Source: Patescibacteria group bacterium (GTDB lineage Bacteria; Patescibacteriota; Gracilibacteria; BD1-5; UBA6164). Taken from it: 64,000 nt of DNA. Shown one piece after another: positions 1 to 64,000 of the stretch. Position 1 is the stretch's first letter, and every line of letters starts with the position of its first letter. The notes under the pieces are model-generated. The model saw nothing but the letters and a program-made list of their open reading frames with translations, searched no databases and was not told where the DNA came from. The stretch spans positions 42,266 through 106,265 of the forward strand of contig JAVHSE010000023.1 of NCBI GenBank assembly GCA_036172015.1. The letters are read 5' to 3'. The translations under genes and the position numbers were made by a program.

Positions 1-674
1 ACATATATTTGAGAAACCAGATTTTGTATATGAAGAATATCTTCTTTATGTAATATTTTTTCGATATCTTGTTGCTCTTTTGAAGTGATTTTTTTATACA
101 TTTCTATTTCATCTTCTTTTTTTGGATAGGTTACTTGTGTTTTGAGTAAAAATCTATCAAGTTGTGCTTCTGGAAGTTTATAAGTTCCTGATTGTTCTAC
201 TGGGTTTTGAGTTGCTAAAACAATAAATGGTTCATCAAGTTGGTAGCTTTTATTTCCAATCGTTACTTGTTTTTCAGCCATAGCTTCCAAAAGAGCTGAT
301 TGTACTTTACTTGGAGCTCTATTAATTTCATCAGCAAGGATAAAATTATTAAAAACAGGTCAAAATTTAATGCTAAATTCTCCAGTTTTTGTGTTAAATA
401 TCTCCGTTCCAATCAGATCACTTGGTAATAAATCTGGAGTAAATTGAATTCTGTTACATCATAAATCAAGAGTTTTTGAAAGGCTATCAATCGTTAATGT
501 TTTGGCTAATCATGGAACTCATTCAAGGAGTATGTGTCATTTCGTTAAGAGTCCTATAATGAGACTTTTTATTAAATTATCTTGTCCAACTACTTTTTTG
601 TGGACTTCCGTAATTACTTTTTGAATTTGCTCTTGAGCGGAAATTACTTCATTTTGTAAAATTTCTTGTGTCAT
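1..674 (-). CDS. MoxR-like AAA+ ATPase (N-terminal part; gene continues past window start)
   Basis: ATG at 674. Code-25 translation [10 protein letters not shown]...[30 protein letters not shown]...[21 protein letters not shown]. All three Gly of GHILLEGVPGLAKT are TGA codons (537-539, 519-521, 510-512). Confidence 0.85.
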
Positions 675-699
675 ATATGTATAATTATAAATTAAATAT

Positions 700-1581
700 T
701 TAAATGCGTTGTAATAATTCAATTATTCGTGAATTATTCGTTATGAGATGAGAATATTTCAGTTTCTGTAAAAGTTCTATGAGTTCTTTTATTTCATCTC
801 TTGTCTCAATATCTCGAATCAATGATACTATTTCAGAATAATTTTTTGCTTTTAAGTTTATATTATATTTGAGTGATATTTTTTCTCGAAATATTTCATC
901 CACTTTGAAAGCAAAATTTTCATCCGTTCATTCTGGGTAGGCATATTCTTGTTTTTGATCAATATATATTTTTTCTTCTTGTTGTTCGTTTGGTTCTTGT
1001 TTTTGTGTTGTTTTGAGTGAGAAATAAACGATAAGAGTTAAGATACTTATAACTCCTAAAAGTAAAAATAGTTGAGAATTATTTTTTTGTTCTATTGTAT
1101 CTAATTCTCCTTTATTTATTTTCTTTGGTGGGTTTTGTAATGGATTATTTTGAGTTCCTATATTATTTTTTGATTGATTTCAATTAAGAAATATTTTTTC
1201 TCCAGTAATATCTATTTTTACGATATTACTTTCAAATTTTTCTTTTCCATCAGTCATTATTATTGGTCCTATTTCATAGCTTCCTTTTTTTTTCGGTATT
1301 AATGTAAAATTGATACTGAGAGTGGAAGTAATTTCACCGTTTATACTCGAAAAATTACTCGATTGCGATTTTGAAACGATATCAAAATTTTCTATTCATT
1401 TGATTTCATTAATTTGTATACTTCATCAATTTTTTGAATCAATAGTGAGTTTGAGATTCACTCTATCATCTACTGTTGCTTTATTCGTATCTATTTGAAG
1501 ATTGGTATTAAAAGCAAAACCAGTACAAAAAAAGATGAAAAGAGAAAAAAGAAAAAGTATTTTTATTATTTTTTTCTTCAT
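700..1581 (-). CDS. Secreted/membrane-anchored protein, BatD-like, upstream of moxR
   Basis: ATG 1581, TAA 700-702, 293 aa with 4 in-frame TGA. N-terminal signal MKKKIIKILFLFSLFIFFCTGFA and an internal TM LFLLLGVISILTLIVYF. BatD-like call rests on architecture and moxR linkage only. Confidence 0.55.
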
Positions 1582-1629
1582 ATTTTTCAGTTAAATATTA
1601 AAAAGATGAGTGTATTATAAGACTCATCT

Positions 1630-1805
1630 GTTAAGAAACCGTTAAGATTTTGTTTATTTTTTGTAAAGATAATAAGCATACATACTTGGAAATATTTATA
1701 TTTCTGCTCTACTTTTTATTACTATAAAATTTTGAAAATTAGTTAGTTACATTATTCTTTTTTCTATTACAATATCTATGAGTTAATTGAGCATTTTCTA
1801 TATTA
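1630..1805. repeat. 176-bp direct repeat, copy 1 (identical to 2929-3104)
   Basis: Base-by-base comparison shows identity over 176 bp at an offset of 1299 bp. Contains a duplicate of the last 22 codons plus stop of the DUF262-HNH gene. Confidence 0.9.
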
Positions 1806-1952
1806 ATTTATTAATATTTTGATTAAATTATTTTAATTCTTATACTTATATAACATAAATTATTTGAATACTATTAGTAAAAAATATATAAATCAATTTA
1901 TAAATAATGATTTATATTGTTAAAATATAATTTAATAGTAACATTATATATA

Positions 1953-2928: not shown

Positions 2929-3104
2929 GTTAAGAAACCGTTAAGATTTTGTTTATTTTTTGTAAAGATAATAAGCATACATACTTGGAAATATTTATAT
3001 TTCTGCTCTACTTTTTATTACTATAAAATTTTGAAAATTAGTTAGTTACATTATTCTTTTTTCTATTACAATATCTATGAGTTAATTGAGCATTTTCTAT
3101 ATTA
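2929..3104. repeat. 176-bp direct repeat, copy 2 (overlaps the true 3' end of the DUF262-HNH gene)
   Basis: Identical to 1630-1805. Positions 3038-3104 are the last 22 codons plus stop of CDS 3038-4435. Confidence 0.9.
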
Positions 3105-4435
3105 GTTTTTCATCATCTTGAAAATGGTATAATATGATCTACTTCTGCATCATCAATTGATATTATTTGTTGTTTACATATTTTACAAGTTTTATCTAAT
3201 TCAAATAATGATTTTTTTATATTATATGGGTATATTCTGTTTTCTTCTTTAGGATTTCATATAATTTCTTCTAATTTTTCAAACCAAATTTTAAATCTTT
3301 TTTGAAGTTGTTCTTTATTACTTGTTTGATTTAATATACAATCAATAAACTTTTGATTATTAGACATTAATTTTATAAATTCTTCTTTAATAACATCTGT
3401 ATTTTGAATTATTTGATTTTTTGTATATTTCGCAAAGCAACACATTTGAATGTCATAAATTGCCATATTTATTCTTGTTAATGCCCAGTATCAATTTGTA
3501 TTTTCATTATCTCATGGTATATATCTTCTAAAAGCATTTTCTCAAAATACACTATATACTAATTCAGTGGTATTTTTAAATATTTCTTTATATTCTTTTA
3601 TTTTTTCATCAGAAAGGTTTCTAAATTCTCTTAAATGTTTATTAGAAAATTGTTTTATACTTGGTTTATAATTTAAATATGATTTTTCATATAAGGCAAA
3701 AAATCTTAAAATCATTCATCTATAAATCATTCTATTCTTATAATTATCTTTTCTTACAAGTTTATTAAAGATTTCACTATTTTCTAAATCTGCTAATAAA
3801 TCCATATATTTTCATCTATAAACAGTATTTCTTATTTCATCCTCATTTAGTTTAATAGATCACGTGTTTAATCTTTCAAATATTTCAAATTTTATATCCT
3901 CATTAGATTCTTTTTTTATAATTATTGTATGAAGAGTCGTTGTTTTTATTTTATTTTGATCTTCCTTTTCTAATTGAGAAAAAGTTTTTCAATTTAATTC
4001 TTTTAATATATTCAATCAAATTAATTTAAAAGGTTTATTAGTTCAGGAAATTTTTTCTTCAATAAATGTTAAAAATGATGTTAATCTTTGTTGTCAATCA
4101 ATAACACTATATTTTCAATCTTTTTCTTCATTTAAATATATAACTGGAAGAGGAACATTCATTAAAATTGATTCAATTAATCTACTTGATTGTTTTTGAT
4201 TCATAACAAAATTTCTTTGATAATCAGGTTGTAATACCAAATCTCAATCTTGTTTCATAGATAAAAATTCTCTAATTGTTATATCTTTAGGTTGCCAAAT
4301 AATATTTCTATTATTTCATTCAATTTCTATAAATTCATTATCTTTTTCAACTTCTTCATCATAATTTTCTTCTTCTATTTCATTTTGAACCTTATTTTTT
4401 AATTTTTTTTCATCTAATATTGCATCACTATTCAT
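3038..4435 (-). CDS. DUF262 (GmrSD/ParB-like NTPase) protein with C-terminal HNH endonuclease; type IV restriction-like
   Basis: 465 aa. N-terminal LQPDYQRNFVM...IDGQQRLTS. C-terminal HNH DHIIPFSRGGKTNIENAQLTHRYCNRKK, in which GG is TGA-TGA at 3110-3115. Confidence 0.8.
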
Positions 4436-9836: not shown

Positions 9837-11117
9837 TTATCTTAAAAATATAATTTCAAATTCCGTTCCTACTCACTCTTGAGAAACAATATTTATTTTC
9901 CAACCAAACATATCCGTAATCTTTTTTACTATTGATAATCCTAATCAAGAACCACTTTCAGAGTACAGAACTGACTGGTCATGTCTATAAAATCTTTCAA
10001 ATATTTTTTTCAAATTTTCTTCTTTTATTCCAATACCTCTATCAATTATTTTTATAGATTTCGCTCAAATTATCACTTGTATTTCGTTATTTCCATTATT
10101 ATAAAAAATCGCATTCATAATAATATTATCAAACAGTCTATCGATATAATACACATTGCTTTCAATGACTAAATCATTTTGAGAGAGAATATTTATTTTT
10201 ATGTTTTTTTTCGAAGCAATCGTCTCATATTCGACTCATTTATGAGTAAAATATTGAGTAAAATGTATGATTTCCTTTTGTGTATTTATTTCTTCTCCCC
10301 TGAGTAAAAATGAAAGATTTGAAATAATATTATTTATATTTGTAACAGCTGAACGAATATTTTTTAATTTTAATAAAATTTTTTCATCGGTAATTTTGTT
10401 TTCTAAAATTTCAATACTCGAATCAATTTGCATCAATGGAGTTTTTAATTCATGACTCACATCTTGAATAAAATCTTTTTGTGAATGAAATATATCTTTT
10501 ATTTTTACAATAAAACTATTCGTAGAGTCAATATATTTTCAAATTTCAGAATCTCAATATTCATTTTGGATTCATTTTGAATCTCGGTAAATATCATAAT
10601 CTTTTATAAAATTTGATATATTTCAAATAGGTTTTAATAAATTGATAGTAAGAAAATAAGTAATTAAAAAAATAACTCCTACAAGAAATACATCCAGAAG
10701 AAGAACTAATTCAATAAATTGATTTTGTATTTTTAACAGATCTTCAATATTTTTCCCAATAATTATATTATAACCTTTATAATCTCATCTAAAAATAATA
10801 TTTTTATTATCATAATAGTGAATTCAAATTTTATATTTGAGTTGCAATGTTTCATCATTATTTCAAAGAGAAAAGAAAAATCATAAAGAATGTATATGTT
10901 TCATTTCATATTCTCATAAAACAAAAATATTTTCTTTTTGTATATCTATAAAATGAGTAATTGTTTGATATTCATTCTCAATATTTTTAATAATCGTATC
11001 TCTAAATTTCTGAGTGATTCCAATATATAAAAAATACGAAAAAATATTGACTACAAAAATAATGAATAAAAAAAATGTTATAAATATACGATTTTGTATT
11101 CAAAGTTTAGTTTTCAT
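9837..11117 (-). CDS. Sensor histidine kinase
   Basis: 426 aa. TM segments near the N-terminus, H-box MSHELKTPL, C-terminal ATPase end ..ITDMFGWKINIVSQEGVGTEFEIIF. Start overlaps the response-regulator stop by 11 nt. Confidence 0.85.
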
Positions 11118-11787
11118 TGGTTTCAAATTTAAATCATATTCATCTGACGGTTTTTATATAATCAGCTTGATTTCATATATTTATTTTGCTACGAATAGAA
11201 TTAATATGAGTTCGCACTACATCTGACCAAATATCATTATTTATTCCCCAAATATATTCTACCAATTCTGATTTTTTTATGACTTTATTTTTATGTATCA
11301 TGAGATATTCGAGTATTTGAAACTCTTTTGGTGTTAATAAAATATTCCTTCCATTTCTATTGACTTCTTTCAAATCTTGATTTAAAACAATATCGGCACA
11401 CTCAATTATATTCAAATTATTACTCTTATGTACTCTTCTTAAAATACTTCTCACTCTCAAAATAAGCTCTTTCAAACTAAATGGCTTTGTTATATAATCA
11501 TCAGCTCAGAAAGTAAATCATTTTTCTTTTGTTTCTAAATCTTCTTTTGCTGTGAGGAGTATTATAGGAGTATTTATTTTATGGAGTTTTATTTCTTTCA
11601 GTATTTCTATTCCATTGATATATGGAAGCATAATATCAAAAATAAAAATATCATATTGATTTTTGAGAGCTTCTTTTAATCCTGATTGCCCATCACTTTT
11701 TAAAGTAACGATAAAATTATTCTCACTTAAAAATTCTCTTATATTTTCTCAAATAATTTTATCATCTTCGATAAGAAGTATTTTCAT
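11107..11787 (-). CDS. OmpR-family response regulator
   Basis: 226 aa. MKILLIEDD, FDIMLPYINGIE, DDYITKPF. The wHTH end ..DYIKTVRGIGFKFETNEN is reached only by reading TGA 11173-11175 as Gly. Confidence 0.9.
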
Positions 11788-11855: not shown

Positions 11856-13139
11856 TTATTGTGATAGCTTTCAAATTTTAGATTGAATTTCTGACCAAAT
11901 ACATACCGATTGATATTCAAAAATTTTTTGTTCTAATTTTTCTATTTCCATAGAAATACGGTGAAAAAAATCCGCCCCTTGTAAAACATCAAATTCTTTT
12001 GAGATTCTATAAAAAAATTTTTTTGTTTCTTCTATTTTTCTGTATGCTTTTTTAATATTTTCGGTTGTAAAATGAGAATATACTTCGGTAGTTTGCAAAT
12101 TGTCTATTCTATCCCAAAATTTTACTTCAAGTGCATCTAAAACGATACTTTTTATAGTAGATACTTCTATAATAATTTTATTTTGTTCAATAACATCTCT
12201 GGTATGATTATAAAAATTATTCATACAAGGAGTATCTCTAAAATGATCTATGTAATAAATAAAATGAGTTGCTGGAAGCATATGAGAAAAATATTCATAA
12301 TTTCTCATATTTCTATATTTTAAATTTAATTCTTCATACCACTCTTCAAAAAATTTTTCTTCTACAGTAATTTGTTCTGGATTAAAATTTTTTTTATTAA
12401 TAAATCTATCATTGAGTAATCACTTTCGATTGAGTATACCTGACGATTGTATATATTTTAATTTTTCCCAATCTGATAAAGACTGTACCCATTTTCTTTC
12501 ACATTCTATTTCTGATTTTTTTAGTAAGTGTCGTTTATTGTATTTTTTTTCTAAATATTCATGAGTAGGATATCGATCGTCATCTTTTCTTAAAAATCAT
12601 ACTTCTTTCAATTCGTCTAAAATATATACCTCAGGTAATATTTTATCTCAATTTTTTTGATCTTGTGTAGTTAATTCAGTAAAAGGTCGTTTGCTAATAA
12701 TCGCAACTCAAAGAGCAATTTTTATATTTAAAGTAGTTTCTAAAGTATGTAAATCATAATCAGTATCTTCAATACTATCATGATGAAGTGCTATGAGTAA
12801 TTTTCTTAAAGATGGTTTTTTTGATTCAATAAGTACATTATAAGCAACTCTTAAAAGGTGATCAAAATACCTTCCTCCATTATTTCTATTAATATTTTGA
12901 AATTTATGTTTTACAGAAGCATAGGTATGATTGAGTGCTTGAAGTTTTTTTTCTGCATATTCTTGGGTAATTTTTCATGATTGGACATCTTGTTGATATA
13001 ATATTTTATATGCTGTATTCCATAATATTTCAATAGATCTTTCAGGTGACCAATTTACAGCATCATTAAAATGAACAAATTCCTTATTAAGAACTCGTTT
13101 TCCATTTTCTCATGATTGACTTAAAGTAGGAATAATCAT
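11856..13139 (-). CDS. HD-domain protein, RelA/SpoT-type hydrolase-like N-terminus plus unassigned C-terminal half
   Basis: 427 aa. HLLRVAYNVL...LLIALHHDSIEDTD carries the His...His-Asp...Asp pattern of SpoT-type HD hydrolases. The C-terminal ~250 aa have no motif I recognise. Confidence 0.6.
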
Positions 13140-13230
13140 ATGAAAGATTAAAAAATATTTTGATGTATAAGAATAAATAATAATCATTTTTGACTAAAAT
13201 CAAATTTATTTTATAAAATATTTATATATT

Positions 13231-13453: not shown

Positions 13454-14134
13454 TTATTTTTTTCCTAAACAAACAATATATTCTTCATGAGAGCTATCTC
13501 TACAAGCCATCGGTTTGTATGTTTTCATATCAACAAATCTTTTTTTTACTTGCATCACAAGATCATTAAAGTCTTCTCATTTAAAAACTTTTAAAATCAT
13601 ATTTCATCATTGCTTCAAAAATCTATCACTAAATTTACAAATAGCTATATTTAATTCAACGGATGCATATTGGTCAACATCGAATATTCCAGTAGTATTT
13701 GGAGCAATATCACTCGTTATGATATCAAATATATGATTTTCTGGTAATATTTTATCCAGTTCTCCAGTCAATTTTTCATAATCAAATATATCACAAACTA
13801 TTGTTTTTACATTTGAATAATTGAGTGGAGCTATTTCTTTAATATCAACCCCAACTATTATATTTTCTTTTGAAACTATATTTCTAATAGCTTGTAAAAA
13901 ACTTCCCGGAGCTGCTCAAATATCTATCACACTAAAATCTGGTTGAATCAAATCAAATCTTTCTTGAATTTCAAAAAGTTTATAGATACTTCTTGCTCGA
14001 AATCAAGCTTTTTTTGCTTTTATAAAATATTCATCTTGTACAACAAAATTTCCTCTTTGTACTTTCTTTTTTCTATGAAATCATATTTTCATCGGTCATG
14101 ATTGTTTATTTTCAATTCTATTTTTTTTTGCCAT
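13454..14134 (-). CDS. rlmE: 23S rRNA 2'-O-ribose methyltransferase RlmE/FtsJ
   Basis: 226 aa. ARSIYKLFEIQERF, SAM motif DIGAAPGSFLQ (the first G is TGA), SDIAPNTTG, KVFKGEDF. Confidence 0.8.
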
Positions 14135-14143
14135 ATTTATATG

Positions 14144-15625
14144 TTAATAATATTTTTTTATAAATTCTAATCATACTTTTTCATCTTCTTTTATATACAT
14201 CTCAACTGCTTTTTTTGCAACCTCTAACAAATTTTTTGATTTAGTTTTTGCTTCAAAAGATTTTTGTATTTTTTCAGTAATTATTTTAATTTTATCATCT
14301 CAAATGAAAGGAATATCAAAATTTAGAGCATCAGTAATTTTTAGATGTTGAATTAAAGCTCCATTTGTTTGTCTTTCTATTTCTTTTTGAATAAAAATAC
14401 TATTTAAAACTAATTCAATATATTCACTTGGAGCATTTGATATATTTTGAAATCTTAAAATTCAACCACTTATTATTCAATCAATATCTTCTCTCAATAA
14501 ATAAGTTATTCAAGCCGTTCAATCTTTAGAAAAAAGTATTTCTCATTTTTGAGGTTGATAATCTTTTAATGTTTCAAAATGACTATTTTTTATAAATTTA
14601 GCATTATTAAAAGTCATTCAATTTGTTGAAAAATTACTTACTCTTACAAAATATTTTTTATCATCTATTCCTTCAACTTCACTTTCTTCAATATATGCTT
14701 CACCTCAAACCTCAATTCACTTTTTATAATTTATTAATTCTCATAATTTTTCTGATTTTATATTTTTGACTCTCTTTTTAATTTCTACAAAATCATAATC
14801 CCAATATTCAGCATCAAATCTATCAAATTCTTTTAAAATACTATAATTTGTAGTTGAATGATTTTCTTGTACTTCTAAACTATATCAAGGAATTAAATCT
14901 ATATTTTTAGTTTTTGCTTTATAATCAAGTAAATCAAGTTCAGATAAAAGTAAATTTTCTGCTTCTTTATAGAGTTTTTCTGAAAATTCTTTTTGATTAT
15001 AACTTTCTATAATTAATTCTTGAATTTTTTCTTGGAAAAATTGAGAAGGGATAGAAATTAATATTTCTGCTAAATTATCTGGATAAATTTCTATTTGTCC
15101 AGAAGTTCAATTATAAAGTTTATTTATTTGAGCTTGTCATATATTTGAATTAAAAAAAGAATATAAATAAGATGAATTTATTCACTCTAATTTTCTAAAA
15201 GCTGTAATATGTCAATCAATAAAATATTTTTCATTACTTAAATTTATTGAAGCTCTTCATAAAGTTCAAACTCAGGTTGAAGTTAATAAAACATCTCAAT
15301 ATTTTATTTGTCATGATTTTTTAGAATTATAAAAATATTCTTCTATATATTCTTGTCTATCATCAGAAAAACCATTTTCTCTAATATTTACACTTCTAAG
15401 AACTTTTATATTTCAGTTAGAATAGTTGGGTTGAGTTCATCTTTTAATATATCATGCTAAATTTCATAGACTATGAGCTTTTTTAGAAATGAGACTATTT
15501 CTAATTTCTAAAATTTCTGGTTCGTAAAATTCAGCATTCAATCTTAAAATTCAGTATAAACTAGATTTATTTACACTTGAATATTCAACATCAAATAATT
15601 TTCATTTAAATGTATGTGTTTGCAT
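14144..15625 (-). CDS. Restriction-modification specificity subunit (HsdS-like, two TRDs)
   Basis: 493 aa. Duplicated TRD-end motifs GDVLLTSTGVGTLGRA and GEILFSKDGTAGITY, plus conserved helical spacers. Confidence 0.8.
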
Positions 15626-15669
15626 AATTATTTTTAATTAATTTAATTTTTAAAACTGGTCGATTTCGA

Positions 15670-16650: not shown

Positions 16651-16702
16651 ATTTTTAAATTTAGAACATATATTTATTATTTTTTCCAGCCTCCTGGAAA
16701 AA

Positions 16703-43207: not shown

Positions 43208-45817
<2,610 letters not shown>

Positions 45818-46526: not shown

Positions 46527-46529
46527 CAC

Positions 46530-49908: not shown

Positions 49909-51771
49909 TTAGTGAGAATTAAAATCAAGGATTATATTAAATAAAATTCTAAAATTTTCAAATTCTCCACTATCTAATATTCTAACTTTTTCAGTAAAAT
50001 TATTTTTTGAAGTATCTGATTCAGAAATTTTATAAAAATATAAATCTTCTTTTTTATCTATTTGATCCTGATTTAATTTATCTCTCACATTTGTTATACA
50101 ATGATTTATATCATCAAAAGTTCTTTTTGATATCATTCAACTAGTTTTTAATATTTCTTTTGAATATAAAAATTCAATCGGACAATTTTTATGAGTTTCA
50201 AAATCTGTATTTGGACAAGGAAGAGTAATTCAAAAAATATTATCTCTTTCTTTTACTTTATATTTTTTATTATCTTCCAAAGAATCTCAAATTTGTTTAA
50301 TTTGTTTTAATCATTCATTATCATAATCGAATATTCAAACTACAACTTTATTTTTAAAGAAGTCTTTTGGAATTCAAAGTAAAAACTGTTTTAATTTATC
50401 AGCTCAATCACATGAATAAATATCAAATTGATTTTTAATTCAAAGTTTTTCAATTGCAATTTCTAAATGCTTTTTATCTGTAATTCACTCTGTAACTAAT
50501 AAATATTTATTTCAACTATTTAGAAGAATTTCCATTTCATTTAGTGACATTTGTCAATCAGTAATTTTATCCAAAATTTCCCTTTTTTCTTTTAAATCAA
50601 GTTTTCAGTTTTCTAAATAAAATAAATGTTTTTTATTAAATTTATTCATTAAGGTTGGCGAATGTGTAGTCATGATAACTTCTCATTCTCAAAAGTTTAT
50701 TAGATAATTTTCAAATAAAATTTTTAATTTTTGTTTATTTCAAACATGAATATATGAATCAGGTTCATCTAGTAAAACTAAACTGTTATTTGAAACTAAT
50801 ATATTTGTAACAAAATAAATAAGTAATTGCTTTTTTTGTCATTCACTTAAATCTAATAAGGGTATATTATCAATAAGCTTTAAATTTATATTGTTTATAA
50901 GTTTATCATTTTTAGTTAATCAAAAACAAGCAATTGATAAATGCCAAAAGAAATCTAAATGACTTCAAATAGTTCAATAATCATCACTGTATTTTCTCAA
51001 AGATTCTAGAGTCCAATCATTTTTTGAAGATATTATTTTTACGAAATTTGTTACATCATTTTCTTTAAATTTTTCTAAGTTTTTTTCATCAATATCAAAC
51101 TCAATTTCATTAATCTTAATTCATTTTCAAAGTATATTTTCAACTCATTTGTATAATTCGTCTGTTTCAAAATCATATACTGAAATTAAGATTGTTAACA
51201 AAGCAATATTCCAAAAATCTTTGTTAATAAAAATCATTTTTGGAGTATCAAAAGAGAGAGTTGCTCAATCTAAAGTTAATTTATTATTTTTAACTGAAAT
51301 AATAAAATTTTGATAATATTCTTGATAATATTTTTCGTAAAGTCTTGTTTCTTCTCCTGAGTATAAAGCAATAATATTATATGGTAATATTAAACCTCTA
51401 TCAATATTTTTTGTAAATACTCAATCAATGTAATATCAAACCATTCTCATTTCTGTATCTTCTCACATCATACTCATAAAATCTCCTCAAGTAGGTCAGA
51501 TTGAAATTCATCATTTTGTATATTGTTGAATAACTTTTATATTTTTTCAGTCTTTAAAATATTCTAATTCATAACTAAAAGCACATCTTCTTTCATTTGT
51601 CTCATCATAAAGTCAATAAAAAATTGCACTTATTGCTTCAAGTACATTTGATTTTCAACTTCAATTGTTTCAAACAAAAATTGATATTCATTCAGATTTT
51701 GTAAAATCTATTGGATTTTCCCAGAAATCTAGGTTTTTAAATCATTTTATTTTTAGTGAGATTAGTTTCAT
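49909..51771 (-). CDS. Fused ABC-type (AAA_21-like) ATPase plus C-terminal TOPRIM/DUF4435- or RloB-like domain (AbiL/PARIS/OLD-like)
   Basis: 620 aa. Walker A VGNNGSGKSNVLEAI, LSEGQKK, Walker B LVLLDEPDSYIH, TTHSP. C-terminal LLVTEGITDKKHLEIA (TOPRIM Glu) and GIFDYDNEG (DxD). Confidence 0.75.
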
Positions 51772-52205
51772 TGTGTTCTTTTATTACAATATTTTTCTAT
51801 ACTCCTAACAAGAATATCCATATCATTACCATTAATTCTTGGTTCTGGTTCAGAAATCTTAATATCTTCATTATCATAATAAAGACTAGCTGATAGTATA
51901 ACTGAAATAACTATCGTAATGAATAATAAAAATCATGAAAAAATTAAATATGCTTTATCTTTAAAATCTTTATATTTTTCAATAATAATTCACACTGAAA
52001 TAAATGCTATTCAAAAAGAAATATTTATGAAAATATTTAATTCTAAATCAGGTTTTATAAAATTTGGTATAAAATAATTAATTCAAATTATAAGTATTTT
52101 TATTAAAGCTATAAATAAAACTGGTAATATCCCAATAATTATACTTTCTTTAAATCTAATTTTATTATCTTTTCACATAAAAAAATTTATAATTTTATTA
52201 AGCAT
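51762..52205 (-). CDS. Small 3-TM membrane protein overlapping the start of the ATPase-TOPRIM gene
   Basis: 138-147 aa (ATG 52205 or 52178). TM segments IIIGILPVLFIALIKILIIG, IFINISFGIAFISVGIII and LIFSGFLLFITIVISVILSA. Its 3' end overlaps the downstream start by 10 nt. Confidence 0.5.
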
Positions 52206-52232
52206 AAATAAATAAATTAAAAAAATAAAATA

Positions 52233-53603
52233 TTAACTAAAAATTTCCCTCTCAAACTCAACTTTTGCAATTTCTTTCAAATCCCCAGAAAGTTTTTTCA
52301 AACTCTTAATTTCTTCTTTTAAATCTCAAATATGTTTTACTATTTTGTCTTGAGTTTCAATTTCTGGTAAAGGAAAAAATATTTTTAATAAATTTCAAAC
52401 TCATAATTCAGTTTGTTTTGTTGCTTGAGCAGATTTTATATTATCTACTTGTTCTTGTCATAAATTATTATTAAAGAAAGTTACAAAAAAATCTGGATTA
52501 ATTATACTTTGATTCAGTCTTAATAATAATAAGTGACTATCATATAATAATCCTTCAAATCATTCCCTTATTAAACTAGCTCTTCATATTGTCCCTTCTC
52601 AAGTTGAATTAATTAATATATCTCAAGTTTGAGTCAATAAATTATTATCAATTCATTTTAACCAATTTTCATCAACTATTTTTCAAAATTGTAAGTCTAT
52701 TTCATCCCACCTATTACATTTTTGGTTTAATATGATTTTATTTCATTTTTCCGAATATTCAGGACTTTTTCATCTTTTAATATCTTTATAATAATCTATA
52801 TTATCTCATAAAGACACAAGTTTATATTTATCACTAGAAAAAAGATTAAATATATTTATCTTATCAACTCCCCATTCCTTTATTTTTAAATAATCCACAA
52901 AATTTAATCATATTTTTTTATTTTCTTTTTCTTTCACTTCAATTCCTAATTCTTCCATCAAATAACTTTCAATTTGTTTTTCTAATTCTCCAGCTTTTAT
53001 ATCAGCATTTAAAGAATCTTTAAGCTTTGCATTATATTCTTCTACAATTCTATTTTGTTCTTCTAAACTTGGAAGTGGTATTTTTGTATTTAGAAAAACA
53101 TTCATATCAACTCTTTGTCTTCAAGTTGTTCAACTACTTCATTGTTGAGTGTAATCCAAAAATTCTTTTGTTCATAAAATAAGTATTAGAAATTGAATAT
53201 TTATTTTATTTTTATCTACTATAAAACTTGGAAAATCATTTGTTACAATAGCTCATTTTAAATCTACTGGAACTATTCAAAAAGCTCAATTTCTGGCATC
53301 AATTTTTGACATTATAAATTCTCATCATGAAACTAAAAATTGTTTTTTAGTTCAGATATTTTCTCACTTTTCTATATCTCTCAAAAAAACTCAATTATTA
53401 TTCATTTTTATAGTAACTCTTTTGTATTCTTTTCAGTCTTCTATATCTATTTGAGTTTTATTTCTCATCAAAAAATCTCAAATTTTTACAAATTCAAAAT
53501 TTTTGTTATATGAAAAGGCTGTTCATTTCAGATATTGAACACTCCAGTTTGAGACATCTATAAAGTCTATAAATTTCAAATATGTATTATTTAATATTTC
53601 CAT
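52233..53603 (-). CDS. hsdS: Restriction-modification specificity subunit (HsdS-like, two TRDs)
   Basis: 456 aa. ..SSGTTGRQRVDMNVFLNTKIPLPSLEEQNRIVEEYN.. (central conserved region), ..STGEGTIGRA.. and ..IFFPLPEIETQDKIV... Confidence 0.85.
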
Positions 53604-53630
53604 AATTTTACTTTCCTTATTTATTTTAAA

Positions 53631-53800
53631 TTACATACTAGTTACATAGTTTGTTGGCTTATTATAAACATTATTACTTTTTATGAACTTCTTCAGTTAC
53701 ATACCAGTCACATATTACTTTGGCTTATAATAAGGATTTATATATTAAACACTCTTTTAGAATCACATGCCAGTCACATAGATTTATGCCCAATATGGAA
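53631..53800. repeat. Three imperfect direct repeats with exact 66-bp spacing (starts 53631, 53697, 53763)
   Basis: 18-nt core tYACATRCYAGTYACATA: ttacatactagttacata, ttacataccagtcacata, tcacatgccagtcacata. Repeats 1 and 2 also share ttggcttatNataa. Lies between the hsdS start and the 3' end of the AlbA_2 gene. Confidence 0.8.
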
Positions 53801-55214
53801 TGTATTCATTATTCTTTTCTCATGCTTTAATTTTATTATTATCTATGGCAAGTTTTATAATTCTTGAAGCCATTGAATAATTTTTTTCTGCAATATTAAA
53901 TCTTTCTCTTAGACTACTATTTGTCATTTTTTCTTCACCAGATAAATACTTTAAAACACAATGTTGATAACAAGCCCTTATTTTATCTGATTCAGTCATA
54001 TTTCTTAATTCTCTAGGAGAATATAATGTTACTCTTGTAAATTCATCATATATTTCAAAATTTGGTGCTGGTAATTGAAAAAGTTCTATATTTGATATAG
54101 CTCTATCAACTCAAGATCCACTTTCTTCACAATATCAGAATCTTCTCATTAAACTGGCTAAATCTTCATTTCTAGATTTTGGAGGATGATCCATAAATCT
54201 ATCAACATCAATTAAAGGAATTCAAGGATTTGTTATTTCAATTCTATTGTTATAAATTTCAATTAATGGTCAAGTTCATGTAATTGAAAAATCTTGATGA
54301 ATAATAGCATTAGCAATAAATTCTCTTAAACTAACTTCTGGGTAAATAGATTTTTTAATTCTTAAAGCTCTTCATATTTCTTCATTTTCTCATATTTTAG
54401 AAATAATATAATCTATAAGTCCTTCAAATCATACTGCATATCACTTTTTTCATTCGATTTCTTCTTTTCTAATATTTTTATTATTTCAATCATATATTAT
54501 AACTCTAATTGTTTTTCTTTTAATTAAATCAAATTTTTGTATATCACGAGCAAATAATATAGCTCATAAAACAGTTATTGAATATTTTCAATTATCTTGA
54601 ATTTTTACTAAATTATCTTCTGCTAATTTTTCAACAAATTTTTTAGTTTCAGTTGGTAAGTCTTGTTTTGTTAATATAAAATATTTATCATAATCTAATA
54701 ATTTTAAAACTTCATCATAAGTTAAATTTTCATAACAAATTTGTTTTTCAAAATTTTTATTTTTTAAGTTATTCCAAATTTTTTCTTCTATTCTAGGATA
54801 GTTTGCTAAATTAGTTGTACTTTCTCCGTCTCTAATATAAGCAATATTATCAAATCTAATAGGAATATTTTTAGCACTTTCAATTTTTAAAATAACTACT
54901 TTTTTTCATTCAACTTCTAATTCTAAAAATTCTACAAATACTTTTGGAGATAATTTTTGAGATAACCAAATATGTAAATTTTGATTTCAAACTTTATAAT
55001 CATTTGGCTTAAAATCTGTTCAAATTATCTTTTTAGTTAAATTTTCAACTCAAAAAAGAATATATCAAAAATCTCTTCATTTTAATAAAGCTGTATTTGA
55101 AATAGCAGAAATATTTTTTCAATCTCTTTCTTTATCAAAATTTTCTTTAAATTCTATATATCAAATTCATTCATGTTGATTTAATAGAGTTTTTAATAAT
55201 TCTATATTTTCCAT
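53784..55214 (-). CDS. AlbA_2 (Schlafen-like) plus HATPase_c_4 putative DNA-binding/regulatory protein
   Basis: 476 aa. N-terminal ..HEGIGYIEFKENFD.., central ..REFIANAIIHQDF...IEITNPGIPL...SRNEDLASLMRRFGYCEESGSGVDR.., and a C-terminal wHTH-like tail. Confidence 0.7.
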
Positions 55215-55233
55215 ATTGTTAAAATTTAAATTG

Positions 55234-57366
55234 TTACCATAAATTATTTTGTTTTCTATATTTTGCAAATTCTTCTGCAAGTGGTTCAAGTTCATTTTCT
55301 ATAACTGCTCAAGTTGTAGAAATTCAAGCTTTATCAACTTCTGCAATAGCAATTTTGTAATTAAAAGTTTCTTTTATTTTCCTTTTTGTTTCCATATTTC
55401 TTTTTTCCCATAATACCACTATCTCAGCAGGAATCTTCTTTTTTTCATCTTTGTCTTTTATTTCTTTGAGTTTTTTAGTAAGAGACTTAATTTGTGAATC
55501 ATAGATTCATCCTATATCTAATTCTGCATGTGCTTTTATTTCTTCATATTCTTTTTCCTCTTCTAAAGTAAATTTCTTTAGAAAAACTAAACTTGGCTTA
55601 ACTGTTGCTCAACTTGCAACAAACACATCTTGAGGTATTGAAGTAATTAATAGTATTTTTGCTCTTCATTCAAAATAATCTCTTACTTTTTGTAAATTTG
55701 AATTATTCAAAACTCATTCAGGAAGAACAATTCACATTCTTCATCATGCTTTTAAAAGCCTTAAATTTCTTTCCATAAATAAGACTTCTGTAAGAGTTGT
55801 AAACTTTCCTAAATCATATAAATCAACCAAATTTTTACCTATATTTCATTCAATTTGATTCAAAGCTTTTAAATATTCATCTCAATATTTTTCAATATAA
55901 TATTTCTTCTTAACTTCATCTTTATATTTATCTCATTCTTCTATTTTTAAATCTTTAGGAACTCTAGAACCAAAAGGAGGATTTGCAAGTATTACATCAA
56001 ATCTATTTTCAAAAATTCAGTTTACATTTAATAGTCAGTCATTATGATGAATTCCATTATGTCAATCTCAGTGCATTATCATATTCATTTTTGAGACTCT
56101 TGCCATTCTAGGATTTGCATCAGTCCCAAAAATAGAATTATGACAAAGTTCATTTATTCTTTTTTCTTCTTCTTTGTTTATTTCTTCTAAGTAATTATTA
56201 TATTTTTTATTTAGTTCTTCATTCTCAATATTTTCCAAATTTTCTCAGAAAATTTCTTTTTGTTTTTGTTTCTTTAATAAAATAAATTCATTAGATATTT
56301 CTTCTCTTATTTTCTCAAAAGCTTTAATTAAAAATCAACCTGAACCACAAGCAGGATCGCAAATTAACTCTCATTCTTTTGGTTCTAATATATCAACCAT
56401 AAAGTTTACTATGCTTCTTGGTGTAAAGAATTGTCATAATTCACCTCTTAAGGTTCTTCAAAGAAATTTTTCAAAAGCAATTCACTTTATATCTGAACTT
56501 GTAGTAGTTAGATTATATTTTTCCAGTTCTTTTACTATTTGTTCAAAACTTACTTCTCTTAGATTTATTTTCTCATATTGGTCAAAAATATTATCATTTT
56601 TAAATTCTTCTTTAACATCTTCAAAAAGTCTTTGCATATATGAATTTTCTTTTTCACTTCCCATTCTTATAGTTTCCCATGCATCTTTTAATTTTTGAAA
56701 TTGTTTAAAAGAAAAAATTGCTTCTTGTTTTGGTTTTCTTTCATACATTATTTTAATAAAAAGTATTTTCGATATTTCATCAAAAGCACTTTCAGGAGAA
56801 AGTTTATCATTATTTCTTATTATATTATGACATTTTTGTAATACTTTTGAAAATTCGTCTCAAGTAAATTCTTTGGTTTTAGCTAAAAAATCTTCTAATT
56901 TCGCATTATCTAAAATATCTTTTACATGAGGAATATCGTTTACTGGTTGTAAACTTAAAGGTAGTTCTTCTTCTACTGTTTTATAAACTTGAAGTTCTTT
57001 TGAATTGCTTACTGCAAAAAGTTTTGCTCTACTCCAAGTAGCATAATTATATCATTGATAACAATCTTCAACTTTTAAATTTATATAAGGAGCTTTTAGT
57101 TCCACAACTAAAAATGCAGTTTTATTTGATAATTTTTCCTCTTTAGTTTTCCATACTACTATATCTGCTCTTGCTTTTCAATTTCCTCTTTGAGAGTTTG
57201 TTAATAAAACCTCTTCATACATTTGCTCAAGAGAGTATCAATAATCATTTATTAATTTACAAACAAATTCTTGTCTTACAATCTCTTCTGGAGTTGATTC
57301 AAGATATTTATCTCTTATAAAAGAATAAATTTTTCAATTTTTATCATATTTTAATTCTAGATTCAT
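55234..57366 (-). CDS. hsdM: N6-adenine DNA methyltransferase (HsdM-like) with N-terminal PD-(D/E)xK/HsdR_N-like domain
   Basis: 710 aa. N-terminal KARADIVVW...AFLVVELKAP. GQFFTPRSIV, CDPACGSGGFL (motif I), LANPPFGS (motif IV). Confidence 0.85.
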
Positions 57367-57589: not shown

Positions 57590-59314
57590 TTAAATTTTAT
57601 TTCTCAAGATAAAATTAATAAATTTATTTAGTAGATTTTGAAAGTTTATCAATAAGATTTTTTTAACTCATAAAATTTTTTCTACATTAAGAACTCAACC
57701 TCATAAAAAATCATACATTCATATAATTCTTTCTATTGGTAAAAAATACCTTTGAACATTCTCATCATTAACTAATTTATTTATGGATCATACTGCTATA
57801 ATTCATTTATTGTCTTTTATATTTAGTTTAAAAGAAGAAATATCTAGTCATAATTTTTTTATATTGTTTTCTATAAACTCAAGATATTCCCTATGAGAAT
57901 CATATAAAATAATTTTTGAAAAATTTTCGTAATACTCCTTAAATTTATTTTCAAATTTCAAACTACTTCTTACTATAATATTTGAAGTAGTAAATTTAGA
58001 ATCAAATAAAGTTATATTTCTACTTTCATAATTTATTATTAATAAATCTATTTCTAAATTTCAACTTTTATGGTTTCAGACATTTCTATAAAAATCTAAA
58101 TAATTTTTTCAATAATTTGTTATTCTAATAAATTTAAATCAATCTAGAGTAATTAGAAATTTATTATTATAGTTTTTTAAATCAATTATTCAATTAACTA
58201 GTTTTAATACTGTGTAAATTTCAAATATATTAAATAATGCAGTATCAATACCTATAGCAGTCTTAAATTTATTATAAAAATCTTCTATGTCCTCAAAATT
58301 TGTTAATCAAATGTCCTCTATATTTTTATGCGATAAGAATCTACTCTTTATTTTATCATTTTTTAGTAAATTTGAAACTATAGAAAATATTTTATCAAAA
58401 GAATTAAATATACTATTTTGATTATAATCAATATTATCTATAAATTTATTATTTTTAAAAGAAATAAAATCATCATAGTAAACTATATTTTTATTTTGTC
58501 TTAAAACTTCTATAATATCTTTAACATTCAGTATAGAAACTATAGTATTTGAAACTAATTCACTTATAGCTAACTTTCAAATGTCAGATTCATTATAAAT
58601 ACTCTTTATATTTGAGATAAAATTATCTATATTTAGAAAATCCAAGTTCTCTATTATTCTTGATATTTCAACTCATTCAATTATTTGTTCTAATTGATTT
58701 TTTAATTCCTCATATTGTCTTGGAAAATTATATTCATCAAATGATATATTATCTAGTATTTCATCAATTTTTATATTATCAGATTGTAAAGTATTACTAT
58801 TATTTAATTTTACATCTTTTGTTAAAACAAGATCTTTTAAATCAAATTTATTTCTCAACACATTAATCCACTTTCTATACTCAACTACAATTTTATCATT
58901 AATATAATTTAAAGTAGCTCATGGATATAATGATAATATTTGTTTATTAATGTCATCTATATTTGGGTATATTCAGCGAATTATAAAGTTTTCTATAAAA
59001 GTGAATATTTTAGGTTTAATATTTTTAGAAAATTCATCATCGATTATTATATTAAAATATTTTTCAAAATTATAATCTTCTAATATTTTTCTTACACCTG
59101 TTTTTATTCTTCAAGGCTTTAACTTTAAAATTTCAGGACAAGGTGCATTTTTAGAATCTCACTCTATTCACATAACTTTATCTAAAAGTCTATACCTATC
59201 AAAATTAGGAGCTAATGTACTTCTATAGATATTAGACAAATAGTTAAGATAAATATTTATTACTTTATCTTCCATAGAAATTCAATCATTATATCAAGGA
59301 TTTTTAATACTCAT
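57590..59314 (-). CDS. Hypothetical 574-aa protein downstream of the OLD-UvrD pair
   Basis: Single code-25 ORF with about 20 in-frame TGA, starting 21 nt after the helicase stop. No TM segments, P-loop or nuclease motif that I can assign with confidence. Confidence 0.6.
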
Positions 59315-59335: not shown

Positions 59336-61024
59336 TTATAGCTGGATTACATTTTCTTCTCAAAAAACATTTTCCCATCAATTTAATGCATTTGCATTTA
59401 AACTAGATAAATAAAGAACAACTAGTTTGTGTTTTGCTCTTGAAAGAGATACATATAATAAATTTAGTAATCTTTCTTCTGCTTCTAAATGTTTTTCTTG
59501 ATCTTTATTTAGTTTTTCTCAAGAAACTAGCTTATCAAATCATCTATAAATATACCACCTATGAGAATCATCAATTATTACTAAAACATTATCATATTCA
59601 GCTCATTTAGTTCAATGTTGTGTTGAATAAGGAGTCATATTTTCTCTATATTTATAATATTCAATTATTTCTTTGTATTCCAGATTTAAAATAGAGTTTT
59701 TAAATTCATTAGCTATTTCTTGTCTTTCAATTTTTTCCTGTTCAGAAAAACTCTCTAATAAATATTCTTCAAATTTTGAAATTCTATCAGTCTTTTTAAA
59801 AATGTTATTATTAAAAATATATTTTAGAACTGTTTCAATAGATTCATTATTTCTTATTTTCTCCAATCAAATAATTAAATTTTTTAATTTCTCTTTATCT
59901 GTTATTTTATTTACTTTAAAATCTTTATCTCAAAATAATTCAAATAAATTATAATAATCCTTTTTGTTAAAATAAAAAATAAGCTTTTCAATTTTTGTAA
60001 CTAAAAAATTAATATAAGGTTCATCAGCCTCTTTTAATCTATCATTTCCATTTAAACTGTATCTTTTTTCAAAAATATCTATTAAATTTCTAAATCATAA
60101 ATCTTCTCATATCTTTTTGTTAGTTAGAACTAATATTTTATTTTCAGAAGGATTATTTTCGAAGTCCCAGTTTAAAACTTCTAAAGTTTTTTTATATTTT
60201 TCTTCAACATCTAAAGAATTTGAGTAATAAAAGTTTACTTCACCATCAAAGTCTTTCATAGCTACTTGTTTTAGTCAATCTTTTTTTTCTCTGACATTAT
60301 TTACTAATTTAACAATTTTTTTTCAACTTCTAAAATTTTCTAATTTTTCTATTTTTTCTAATTTATCACTAATAAGTTTTCAAATTGTATTATTTTGATA
60401 GATTTTTTGCATTGAGTCTCAAAAAAATCATAATAAAAACTTTTCTTGATTTCAGTTTAAAACTTCTAAAAAAGTATTTACAATTTCTTTATTAGTATCT
60501 TGATATTCATCAATAAATAAATATGGATATTTTCTTATTAGTATTTTTGCTAAAGAAGGATACTTATTGAACATTTTTACTGAAAAATTAATAACATCAT
60601 CATGTCATATTTCTCAATTTTTTAATCTTCTTCAATATTTTCAATAACTAATAGTTAATGATTTTAATAATGATTCAATATCATCAATTTTTTTATCCCA
60701 ATCTAAGTCATTATTTAATTCTATTATTTCCTTCTTTAAATTAACTTGATAGTCTCATATTAATGACCAAAGAAACTCATGTATTGTATTTATTTCAACT
60801 ATATCAGAGTATCATAATCTTTTTATCATTTCATCTTTAGCGACATTTGTATAAGTTATACAAGCTATTTTTTCTCATGTATGATAAAAAGAGTCTCATT
60901 TAATTGAAATTATATGTCTTATAGTTTCAATTAGTGTATATGTTTTTCATGATCATGCTCAAGCTTCTAATATAAAGCTTTTTTTATTTTTTATTGATTC
61001 TATTACTTTTTCTATTGTAGTCAT
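59336..61024 (-). CDS. UvrD/PcrA/Rep-like SF1 helicase (GajB-like)
   Basis: 562 aa. Walker A LEAGAGSGKTYT, FIDEYQDTN, FFGDSMQKIY, STQHGTKGAEYDNV, LLYVSLSRAKHKL. Confidence 0.85.
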
Positions 61025-61025
61025 A

Positions 61026-63038
61026 TTATTTTGATAACCAAATTAAACCTTCTTTAATATATTTTGGAATAATAAATGACTCCATCATCAATACATCAAA
61101 AGCAAAATCTGTCTTTAAAGAATTATTATCTATATAACTTGAAATTTCCCAAGATTTCTCTTTTACTTGATCTTTATTTAATGAAGAAAATTTATTTTTT
61201 AAAATTATAGATTCTTTAGAGTAATTTTCTAGTTTTTCATAATTTGCTAATATAAATGCCTCTTCAAAGCTTCTTCATGTATTTCAGTTTTCCTCAATTT
61301 GATATGCAACTCTATAATTTCATACAATTTTGCTATTTTCTGCTAATGATAATAAAACTGACAATTCCTTTTTTCAAGGAATCCAATTTATTAAAGTATA
61401 ATTACTAGTGTATTTTCATTCAGATACTTTATAACTACATTCTTTAGAATCATCAGAATCAATCTTTTTTCAAGTAAATCATAATAGTATTTTTTCTTCC
61501 TTTGTTTTTTTATCAACAGAATCAATATCTGTAATTATTAAAGTTTTTATTCATATAAATTCAAGAAAATTCTTAAATTTATGTGAATATGCTCATCAAA
61601 CTTCTATAATAGAAATATATTGAGAAGTTAATTTTTCATGAATATTTTCAATCTCATTATCTATATTTAAAATAAATAATGGTAATAAAATTCTTTCTAC
61701 CATTCACTCTATTAATATTAATTTATCAGCAAAAAATATATCTGATTTTTCTAAAGTTAAATATTTTTTTAGAAATTCAAAATTTCATTCATCGTTGAAG
61801 TTGTTCAAATCTTTGACTTCAGTATTACTATTTTCTTTTTTGAAGTATCTAATTTTTGTAAAATCAGAACATGTGATAATATGAGAAGAATGAGTCGTTA
61901 AAACTATTTGCACATTCCATCATTTGCTATTTATAAACTTTTCTATTTGCTTAATAAAAGTTTGTTGCATTTGTGGGTGTAAATGAGCTTCTGGTTCTTC
62001 TATAAATAATAATTGAAATTGTGGAATAGGTTTTAACTTGATGAATTCTCAATATAAATATGAAAATTGAAGTATTATATATATTAAATTACTATATCAA
62101 AGTCCATTGTAGGATTCAGGTAACTGATAATCTCAGTTTGAGTAGTATATTTTTGAGTTATTTCATTTCATTAATTCTACTGCAGACAATTCAGCTTTTA
62201 ATGATAATTTTCTATCTTTGTCAGACAATCATGGATATCAAAAATTTCATAAATCTTCTTGTAGAACTTTAAAAAACTTTAAATATTCTCCATCTAAGCT
62301 ATCGTTAGTTTTAGACAGTAATGTATCTAAACCTTTTTCTATGTTTAAGTCTGTATTTTTCTTAAAGTAATTTTCAAATATTTTTGATAAAGTATTATTT
62401 TTATCAGAAGAGTTATCATCTAAATCTCTTTGGGCATTTATAAAACTTGTATTAAATATACTACCTATATCTTTATTAAGTTTATGCATTAAATTTGATG
62501 AATCAATAACAAACTTTTGAATCTCAAAATTTCATTCAAAGTTATTTTTTATATAATTTATAATTTTAAAATCTTCTTCATCTCAATATAATTCTTTAAT
62601 TTTTTGATAAAATCATATCTTATTTTTCATCACTAATTTTAGACAGATTTTATACTCATCTATTGAGTCTTCTAAATCTCCTCTAAAATCTAATCAATCA
62701 TCATCTTCTTCTATCTTAAAGTTAATAATAAGAATTATTTCCGGTATGGATTCTTCAAATATATTATATTTTTTACCTCTTTCTTTTTCATCTTCTATTT
62801 CTTTTTCATAGTCCATGTATAACTTTAAAGATTCTTTTAATTTAACATGTGTACATATTGAGAAATCATTGAAATCAAATTTACTTCAATCATTAAAAAA
62901 TTTTTTAAATAATTCTGTTAATGATGTTTTTCAACTATTATTTCTTCATACAATAATAGTATGATTTTTATTAAATTCTAAATTCTCAATGTTATGTAAT
63001 AATCTAAAGTTTTTTATACCAATGCTTTTTATGTACAT
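61026..63038 (-). CDS. OLD-family ATP-dependent endonuclease (class 2 OLD / GajA-like): ABC ATPase plus TOPRIM
   Basis: 670 aa. Walker A VGRNNSGKTSL, Walker B LLFIEEPEAHLHPQ, LTTHSSH, TOPRIM LILIEGMVERILLP and LIITDIDS. Stop lies 1 nt before the helicase ATG. Confidence 0.85.
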
Positions 63039-63156
63039 AAAATATTAATAATTAATAAAATTTAGATAAAAAATTATCTATAAACAAATTGATTATATTC
63101 ATTACATATTAATTTTATATTAATTTTTAAAAGAAAATTTTATTTTATGTTAAAAA

Positions 63157-63747
63157 CTATAAATCTAGCTTATTACAAGCATTCATAATTTCATCTGCAG
63201 TTATTCATAAATATCTCATAGTTACAGCAAGAGAAGAATGATTTAACTTATGTTGTATAATTTCAAGAGGTATTGCATTTATACGAGCTTGATATCACCA
63301 AGTTTTACGGAGAGTGTGATTTCAGAAATTACCTTTAAGTCAAACATCTTCGCAAATTTTAGAAAGAAGTATCCAGCTCATTTTACGACCTATAGATTTA
63401 ATTCAAAGTGGGAAAGTTTTTTTTTGAAAAAATATAAAATTATTTTTATCTAAAATAATATTTGGATAAGTTTCTTTATATAGTTTTAAAGTTTCTTTAA
63501 CTTTTGGAGTAATAGTAATCCTATTAGTTTTATTTGTTTTTTCTTCTTTTATATCAAAAAAATCCTTTATACCTGAGTTATTCTCAAAAATATCTTTTAC
63601 TTGAATAGAAAGTAAGTCTGAAATACGAAGAGCTGAATTTATTCATAATTCAAATAAAAGTAAGTCACGAATATTTCAATCAAATCTAAGTAAATTTTTT
63701 ATTTGAGAAATCTTTTTTATATCTCTAATTGGTTCTACAAATTGCAT
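63157..63747 (-). CDS. Short tyrosine site-specific recombinase (catalytic domain only)
   Basis: 196 aa. ..GINSALRISDLLS.. (Arg I), ..GNHTLRKTWGY.. (His-x-x-Arg), ..LNHSSLAVTMRYLG.. (His, catalytic Tyr). Confidence 0.75.
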
Positions 63748-63778
63748 GAATATATTAGTTAAAATATAATAAAACTTA

Positions 63779-63900
63779 TATTAAGTCTAATAATATGAAA
63801 TGTAAAATAAAAAGCAAATAATTTTATTCGCTTTCTTTTGATATAAATCAGGAAATATTAGACACAATACTATTAAGTCTAATATATTAAAATGCAATAC
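63779..63900. repeat. Two ~30-bp imperfect direct repeats upstream of the recombinase gene
   Basis: tattaagtctaataatatgaaatgtaaaata (63779-) and tattaagtctaatatattaaaatgcaatac (63871-). The first 14 nt are identical, spacing 92 bp. Confidence 0.7.
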
Positions 63901-64000
63901 CTATTAGTTCATTATTAACTATATGTTTAAAGTTTGAAACTATCAAGATAATAACAAATACAAAAGAAAAAGAGATTAATTTATTAATCTCTAAAATCTA

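Follow-up and report, generated by a model that had tools for sequence, protein, structure and literature searches.

The genetic code considered here is that of a 64,000-nt stretch of contig JAVHSE010000023.1, hereafter the window. The window is a gene-dense chromosomal segment that uses TGA as a sense codon, and comparison with related sequences shows that UGA is read as glycine, neither as tryptophan nor as a stop. Four independent tests agree on this point, namely alignment to PDB orthologues, the composition of GyrA columns, codon exchange among relatives and profile scores. The best explanation overall, which we hold with very high confidence, is a chromosome of Candidatus (Ca.) Gracilibacteria (BD1-5) in which UGA encodes glycine, with a probable refinement of the code by which CGG encodes tryptophan. 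The original prediction, made from the letters of the window, had placed it under translation table 25. The glycine assignment was borne out by all four tests, whereas table 25 itself is probably incomplete, with CGG behaving as a tryptophan codon.

UGA as a glycine codon

The window has a GC content of 23.9%. When TGA is treated as a stop, as in table 11, 29 open reading frames (ORFs) of at least 100 amino acids (aa) cover only 16% of it. With TGA as sense, a greedy set of 54 non-overlapping ORFs tiles the window to 92%. One of these 54, at 370-684 on the plus strand, was discarded as a spurious antisense shadow of the MoxR gene at the left edge. In the remaining 53 genes, distributed over positions 1-64000, TGA occurs in frame 753 times (3.9% of codons, or one per 26 codons), and 52 of the genes contain at least one. 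The earlier claim that the standard code fragments nearly every gene is thereby confirmed. All 53 genes end in TAA (n = 48) or TAG (n = 5), as had also been predicted, a result that is partly true by construction, as the ORFs were delimited by these two codons. The role of TAA and TAG as sole terminators is, however, backed by protein lengths close to those of orthologues (MetK 377 versus 384 aa, GyrA 869 versus 875, SerRS 420 versus 425) and by the agreement of C-termini and lengths in MetK, GyrA, SerRS, UNG and the OmpR-type regulator. Moreover, full-length matches to profiles extend through many TGA codons. Independent assemblies from at least six samples (Logan, SRR25490519-551) contain contigs that match parts of the window at 99.9-100% identity, showing that the window is not an assembly artefact.

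To assign a residue to TGA, six proteins in which TGA was masked as X (MetK, GyrA, SerRS, UNG, the OmpR-type regulator and PheT) were aligned to standard-code orthologues from the PDB. By script count, glycine lay opposite the TGA site in 61 of 91 cases and tryptophan in none, a glycine enrichment with a binomial p of 3e-47 against a background of 7.2% Gly. Control codons in the same alignments behaved as expected of their standard meanings, with GGN opposite glycine at 64 of 87 sites and TGG opposite tryptophan at 8 of 13. The gene metK (S-adenosylmethionine synthase; 35463-36596, plus strand), which matches E. coli-type MetK at E = 1e-120, illustrates the result. It contains 12 TGA codons, one of which (35790-35792) lies in the motif GAGDQG, and eight of the 12 sites are opposite glycine and none opposite tryptophan in the PDB orthologues. 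Scored against TIGR01034, the protein reaches 509.5 bits with glycine at TGA and 479.7 bits with tryptophan. Directly upstream of metK, at 35276-35383 on the plus strand, lies a SAM-I riboswitch, matching RF00162 with 48 bits, a score that exceeds the gathering threshold.

The second test used gyrA (43208-45817, plus strand), which holds 32 in-frame TGA codons. One genome per GTDB species was scanned, yielding 80 loci for a codon-aware alignment; 33 of the relatives have no in-frame TGA and 35 are TGA-rich, that is, recoded. Over the 32 columns where the window has TGA, the 33 relatives without in-frame TGA show 74% glycine and 0% tryptophan, and 17 of the 32 columns are invariant glycine. The GGN control columns gave 79% glycine, against a background of 7%. 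An all-codon decoding from the same alignment gave nearly every codon with at least three columns its standard meaning, and TGA was decoded as glycine as strongly as GGA and GGT. The predicted enrichment of glycine, and not of tryptophan, at TGA columns was thus found both here and in the PDB alignments.

Codon exchange among the recoded relatives points the same way. Opposite the TGA codons of the window, the 35 TGA-rich relatives carry TGA in 54% and GGN in 29% of cases. Across these relatives there were 319 exchanges between TGA and GGN but only one between TGA and TGG, and the TGG codons of the window were paired with TGG in 95% of cases and in no case with TGA. Over all fetched recoded loci, 834 conserved-glycine columns hold TGA. 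Beyond gyrA, a codon comparison by synteny with the closest relatives reached few genes, because gene order is poorly conserved. In the fourth test, translating TGA as glycine rather than tryptophan raised the scores of five NCBIfam models by 18-45 bits each and 147 bits in total, over 53 TGA codons. Reading TGA as glycine also gives a composition of 6.0% Gly, as opposed to 2.1% Gly and 4.4% Trp otherwise. UAA and UAG are the only terminators, and UGG still encodes tryptophan.

Raw counts of residues in homologue lists are misleading here, as many relatives are stored with TGA translated as tryptophan, which places artefactual W at glycine columns. For this reason, we relied on PDB orthologues, TGA-free relatives and codons at the DNA level.

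Individual motifs show how TGA is placed. An in-frame TGA was found at every coordinate given in the original prediction, although it had left unstated that MoxR and HNH are minus-strand examples, reading TCA on the plus strand. The ung gene (uracil-DNA glycosylase; 41641-42366, plus strand) has 10 TGA codons, including 41884-41886 in GQDPYHG; in gyrA the codon at 43544-43546 falls in GKYHPHGD; and the OmpR-family response regulator (11107-11787, minus strand) carries TGA at 11140-11142 and 11134-11136 in TVRGIG. These three motifs had been named without positions and were located here. The serS (26843-28105) and pheT (46568-48904) genes, both on the minus strand, contain 18 and 27 TGA codons, respectively. 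A MoxR-type AAA+ ATPase (1-672, minus strand; AAA_3 residues 1-131/131, E = 4e-60), cut by the window edge, has TGA at 510-512, 519-521 and 537-539 in its P-loop region. In a GmrSD-N (DUF262) and HNH nuclease resembling NsnA (3038-4435, minus strand; PADLOC NsnA model, E = 1e-82), two successive TGA codons at 3110-3115 encode the glycines of SRGGK. All 16 glycine codons of this nuclease gene are TGA and none is GGN.

Two neighbouring ABC exporter paralogues provide an internal control. The Walker A motif of paralogue 1 (36631-38343, plus strand) contains three consecutive TGA codons (37729-37737; TGATGATGA) within V-x-AS-xxx-KT, whereas paralogue 2 (38365-40089, plus strand) has GNSGSGKS, so that x-AS-xxx-KT aligns with G-NS-GSG-KS. 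The C-termini, proposed earlier as a control, are confirmed: paralogue 1 ends in ..LDLQS-TGA-F* (TGA at 38335-38337) and paralogue 2 in ..LDLQS-GGG-F* (GGG at 40081-40083). When the two paralogues are aligned, TGA is paired with TGA at 8 positions, with GGN at 10 and with TGG at none.

CGG and CGA codons

Codetta has predicted CGA and CGG to encode tryptophan in Absconditabacteria, and CGG alone to do so in some Gracilibacteria (Shulgina & Eddy 2021, PMC8629427), and we therefore examined both codons in the window. AGA makes up about 85% of arginine codons. CGG occurs only four times in 19,490 codons (2 per 10,000) and CGA 24 times. Three of the four CGG codons, at 32554-32556 (minus), 48500-48502 (minus) and 36706-36708 (plus), are informative and behave as tryptophan codons. 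The fourth (22968-22970, minus strand), which falls in a histidine kinase's PAS domain, is uninformative.

The clearest case is the CGG at 32554-32556 in a Vut_1/YhhQ queuosine-precursor transporter (32161-32838, minus strand; 11 TGA codons). Its column holds TGG in 59 of 61 homologues without in-frame TGA, the other two having Phe and Tyr. In TGA-recoded relatives the column shows CGA 10 times, CGG 7 times (including the window) and TGG 4 times, with AGA, AGG and CGT at zero; the closest relatives have TGG. In pheT, the column of the CGG at 48500-48502 is hydrophobic, occupied by L, M, V, I or W, with R or K in 0 of 51 homologues, and the closest relative (L175) has TGG there. In ABC paralogue 1, the CGG at 36706-36708 recurs at the same site in two other species. 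In the exporter genes of these three species it is the sole CGG, beside 10-13 AGA codons, and in more distant homologues its column holds W, Q, N or S. Counted over all alignable pairs, the CGG codons of the window are paired with CGA 10 times, CGG 8 times, TGG 7 times and AGA never, while the control codon CGT is paired with AGA 90 times. The gyrA gene is uninformative on CGG and CGA, with CGG absent from this gene in all 35 recoded relatives.

For CGA, the alignments show that it stays an arginine codon in this genome. In the rlmE/ftsJ methyltransferase gene (13454-14134, minus strand), the motif G(TGA)-F-R(CGA)-ARS.YKL places the CGA at 13997-13999 on the invariant arginine of GYR(S/A)R..(Y/F)KL, and the CGA at 27011-27013 in serS falls on a conserved arginine. 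A further CGA (33403-33405) lies on the arginine of what we take to be the R-x-x-G-x-G motif of a GNAT protein. The 443-aa ORF at 11856-13187 (minus strand) holds five of the window's 24 CGA codons. This ORF and those at 23271-25913 (minus) and 28894-29856 (plus), of 880 and 320 aa, have no Pfam match with TGA read through.

From these columns we consider it likely, with good confidence, that CGG is read as tryptophan in this genome. A code combining UGA as glycine and CGG as tryptophan with CGA kept as arginine, a three-change code that appears in no NCBI table, is a likely description of the window. With CGG so read, the standard meaning probably does not hold for all of the other 61 codons, on what is a small sample.

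The meaning of CGR codons differs among lineages of the recoded clade. The Vut_1 genes of 14 related loci have CGA, and some CGG, on two invariant tryptophan columns, which corresponds to the Absconditabacteria-type state in which both CGA and CGG encode tryptophan. One of these loci (L088) comes from an SR1 metagenome-assembled genome (MAG), with CGA on tryptophan columns as in the SR1 code.

Alternative readings, known codes and lineage

A sense UGA could also denote tryptophan, as in table 4, the code of Mycoplasmatales, Entomoplasmatales and several insect endosymbionts. A GC content of 23.9% and a TGA that is clearly sense would suit this code, and two public-collection entries (P0001 and P0190) hold window proteins with W at TGA. 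Yet tryptophan was found at 0 of 91 PDB sites and at 0% of the 32 GyrA columns, the TGA/TGG exchange was seen once against 319 for TGA/GGN, and the tryptophan translations lost 147 bits over five families. Table 4 would further imply an implausible 4.4% Trp with only 2.1% Gly, and the GyrA relatives are Gracilibacteria, not Mollicutes; we regard this code as excluded here. That TGA is a true stop, its in-frame occurrences being due to pseudogenes, sequencing errors, selenocysteine or programmed read-through, would account for nearly every gene being broken under table 11. It fails to explain why the 753 in-frame TGA codons favour positions of invariant glycine, why independent assemblies from at least six samples are 99.9-100% identical, and why the same TGA positions are kept in dozens of related genomes. 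Selenocysteine is impossible at 3.9% of codons, and this explanation, refuted by TGA being conserved on glycine columns from genome to genome, has a next to negligible probability. A dual meaning, in which UGA is mostly glycine and terminates in some contexts, could draw on the rare non-glycine peptides reported at UGA (Hanke et al., PMC4032931). However, no gene of the window needs a TGA stop, as 53 of 53 end in TAA or TAG, lengths are orthologue-like and coding density already reaches 92%, and such a dual meaning is very improbable.

Plain table 25, with CGG as arginine and the CGG/TGG correspondences as real Trp-to-Arg substitutions, concerns the refinement and not the reading of UGA. In its favour, the window has no more than four CGG codons, the column in the ABC exporter varies, CGG falls on a conserved arginine in L032, a locus of a related lineage, and the sister codon CGA is arginine here. 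Against it stands the Vut_1 column, which is tryptophan in 59 of 61 homologues and in recoded relatives holds CGA, CGG or TGG, never AGA despite its share of about 85%, with TGG and CGG interchanging among the closest relatives. The CGG at the ABC site is kept in three species, and the CGG codons of the window pair with AGA, AGG and CGT in no case, compared with 90 CGT/AGA pairs. On balance, plain table 25 is unlikely.

Several observations weigh against the preferred reading of UGA as glycine and CGG as tryptophan. About one third of the TGA sites in the PDB alignments are opposite residues other than glycine; this is no argument against glycine, because the GGN controls behave alike. Neither the window nor the approximately 170 loci contained a tRNA(UCA), so that the decoding mechanism is proposed by analogy. 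The tryptophan reading of CGG draws on four codons, of which one is uninformative and the ABC column is variable. The conserved arginine at CGG in L032 indicates that the trait is lineage-specific. Finally, a split between CGA as arginine and CGG as tryptophan would require a matching tRNA set. CGA and CGG are linked by wobble, and one tRNA(UCG) normally reads both. If the split is true, it implies a dedicated tryptophan-accepting tRNA(CCG) together with a tRNA-Arg(UCG) limited to CGA, and the CGG-only state could be an intermediate or reverted stage toward the SR1 state.

By analogy with published genomes of the clade, UGA would be read by a tRNA-Gly with anticodon UCA, and release factor 2 (RF2), which otherwise terminates at UGA, would have been lost. 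Reassigned genomes have the tRNA-Gly(UCA) and lack RF2, and in Gracilibacteria-labelled genomes without this tRNA and with RF2, UGA serves as a stop (PMC8629427). In a BD1-5 bacterium, glycine at UGA has been confirmed by proteomics, which also validated the SR1/Gracilibacteria code (Hanke et al. 2014, PMC4032931). In the window, a search with ARAGORN and Rfam for tRNA(UCA) and tRNA(CCG) found neither, and the annotated genes include no domain of the release factor type, a negative that holds for these 64 kb and not for the genome as a whole. Among the roughly 170 fetched related loci, neither tRNA(UCA) nor tRNA(CCG) was present.

Compared with known codes, the window most resembles NCBI table 25 (Candidate Division SR1 and Gracilibacteria), with which it has in common UGA as glycine, UAA and UAG as stops, UGG as tryptophan, a low-GC genome and, by GyrA, the same clade. 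The difference lies in CGG, which is arginine in the table and apparently tryptophan in the window. The Absconditabacteria (SR1) code likewise has UGA as glycine and a Trp-like CGG, and in both CGG is extremely rare and AGA predominates among arginine codons. However, CGA is predicted to be tryptophan in SR1, whereas in the window it is arginine, as seen in RlmE and SerRS. Judged by these codons, the window probably fits the state of some Gracilibacteria with CGG only, not that of SR1. Table 4, known from Mycoplasma/Spiroplasma and insect endosymbionts, has in common with the window a sense UGA, a small and very AT-rich genome and the breakage of genes under table 11, and differs in having tryptophan at UGA, where the window has glycine, and in belonging to an unrelated lineage. 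The reading of UGA as glycine is therefore already known biology, that is, table 25 in its expected lineage, documented by Campbell et al. 2013 and by Rinke et al. 2013 (both cited in PMC8629427). The CGG refinement is anticipated in the literature and captured by no NCBI table.

The lineage was assigned by GyrA. The closest sequences belong to MAGs labelled Ca. Gracilibacteria or Patescibacteria, JANJUN01 (83% identity) and JAUCDK01 (81%). In a neighbour-joining tree, the window lies deep within a clade whose members carry in-frame TGA at glycine columns, and in-frame TGA is absent from the outgroup, whose labels are Peregrinibacteria, Altimarinota and similar. The placement is based on one marker and a distance tree, the window having neither rRNA nor ribosomal proteins. 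It supports assigning the window to the chromosome of an uncultivated Ca. Gracilibacteria (BD1-5 lineage, Patescibacteria/Candidate Phyla Radiation). The original prediction of a Gracilibacteria or Absconditabacteria origin can thus be narrowed to Gracilibacteria specifically, the gyrA placement it had proposed as a check nesting the window in the UGA-recoded clade. A phage origin was rejected, as the housekeeping genes gyrA, metK, serS, pheT, trpS, ung, rlmE and rbfA are present.

Codon usage, annotation and defence genes

TGA is the majority glycine codon of the window and accounts for 65% of all glycine codons. Defence and mobile genes have it at 81% of their glycine codons, compared with 52% for genes of housekeeping and transport (Fisher p = 2e-18), and per gene its share drops with rising GC (Spearman rho = -0.64). 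The share peaks in those accessory and defence genes that are richest in AT. We attribute the displacement of GGN by TGA to the strong AT pressure reflected in the 23.9% GC. This usage implies that accessory genes, fully adapted to the recoded code, are exchanged only among hosts in which UGA is glycine, and the defence-island genes, with TGA at 81% of glycine codons, illustrate the idea of a genetic firewall.

Ten higher-GC loci nested within the recoded clade, four of them with a GC content of 54-58%, have only 0-4 TGA codons in gyrA. Where present, these rare TGA codons fall on invariant glycine columns. This suggests that the reassignment is clade-wide and that the use of TGA tracks GC content.

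The value of the finding is mainly practical, as the code is essential context for annotating the rest of the window. Table 11 breaks 52 of the 53 genes. Proteins translated by the common fallback, table 4, come out at full length but with about 4% wrong residues, W standing where an invariant G belongs, and table 25 itself probably mistranslates CGG. Public collections show the consequences: P0001 and P0190 equal the window proteins of 32161-32838 and 36631-38343 except for W at every TGA, and many recoded relatives (Logan, ENA, JGI) are stored with TGA as tryptophan or as fragments, among them PheT relatives held as pieces of 215-660 aa compared with about 780 aa. Work on the defence systems and other genes of the window needs UGA as glycine and should treat CGG as tryptophan.

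A complete Gabija system occupies 59336-63038 on the minus strand, where all the defence and mobile genes listed below also lie. GajA (61026-63038) matches its PADLOC model at E = 8e-157 over residues 1-670 against 1-661 of 679, contains 27 TGA codons and combines AAA_15 with an OLD-like TOPRIM domain. Adjoining it is GajB (59336-61024), a UvrD-like helicase (E = 2e-119). An unannotated ORF of 574 aa (57590-59314) follows the Gabija genes.

Two clusters of the restriction-modification type were found as well. The first (49909-57366) consists of a fused HSDR_N_2 and N6_Mtase protein (55234-57366), a Schlafen/AlbA_2 and HATPase_c_4 protein (53784-55295), a specificity subunit (52233-53603) and a PtuA-like or ATPase-TOPRIM protein (49909-51771). 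The second (14144-18938) again includes a fused HSDR_N_2 and N6_Mtase protein (16716-18938), together with a RhuM-family protein (15670-16650) and an unannotated ORF of 493 aa (14144-15625). The defence island has a short phage-integrase-family recombinase (63157-63747) at its far end and, at its near end, a tRNA-Arg(CCU) (46454-46528, plus strand), the sole tRNA detected in the window by ARAGORN and Rfam. This arrangement suggests an integrated mobile island.

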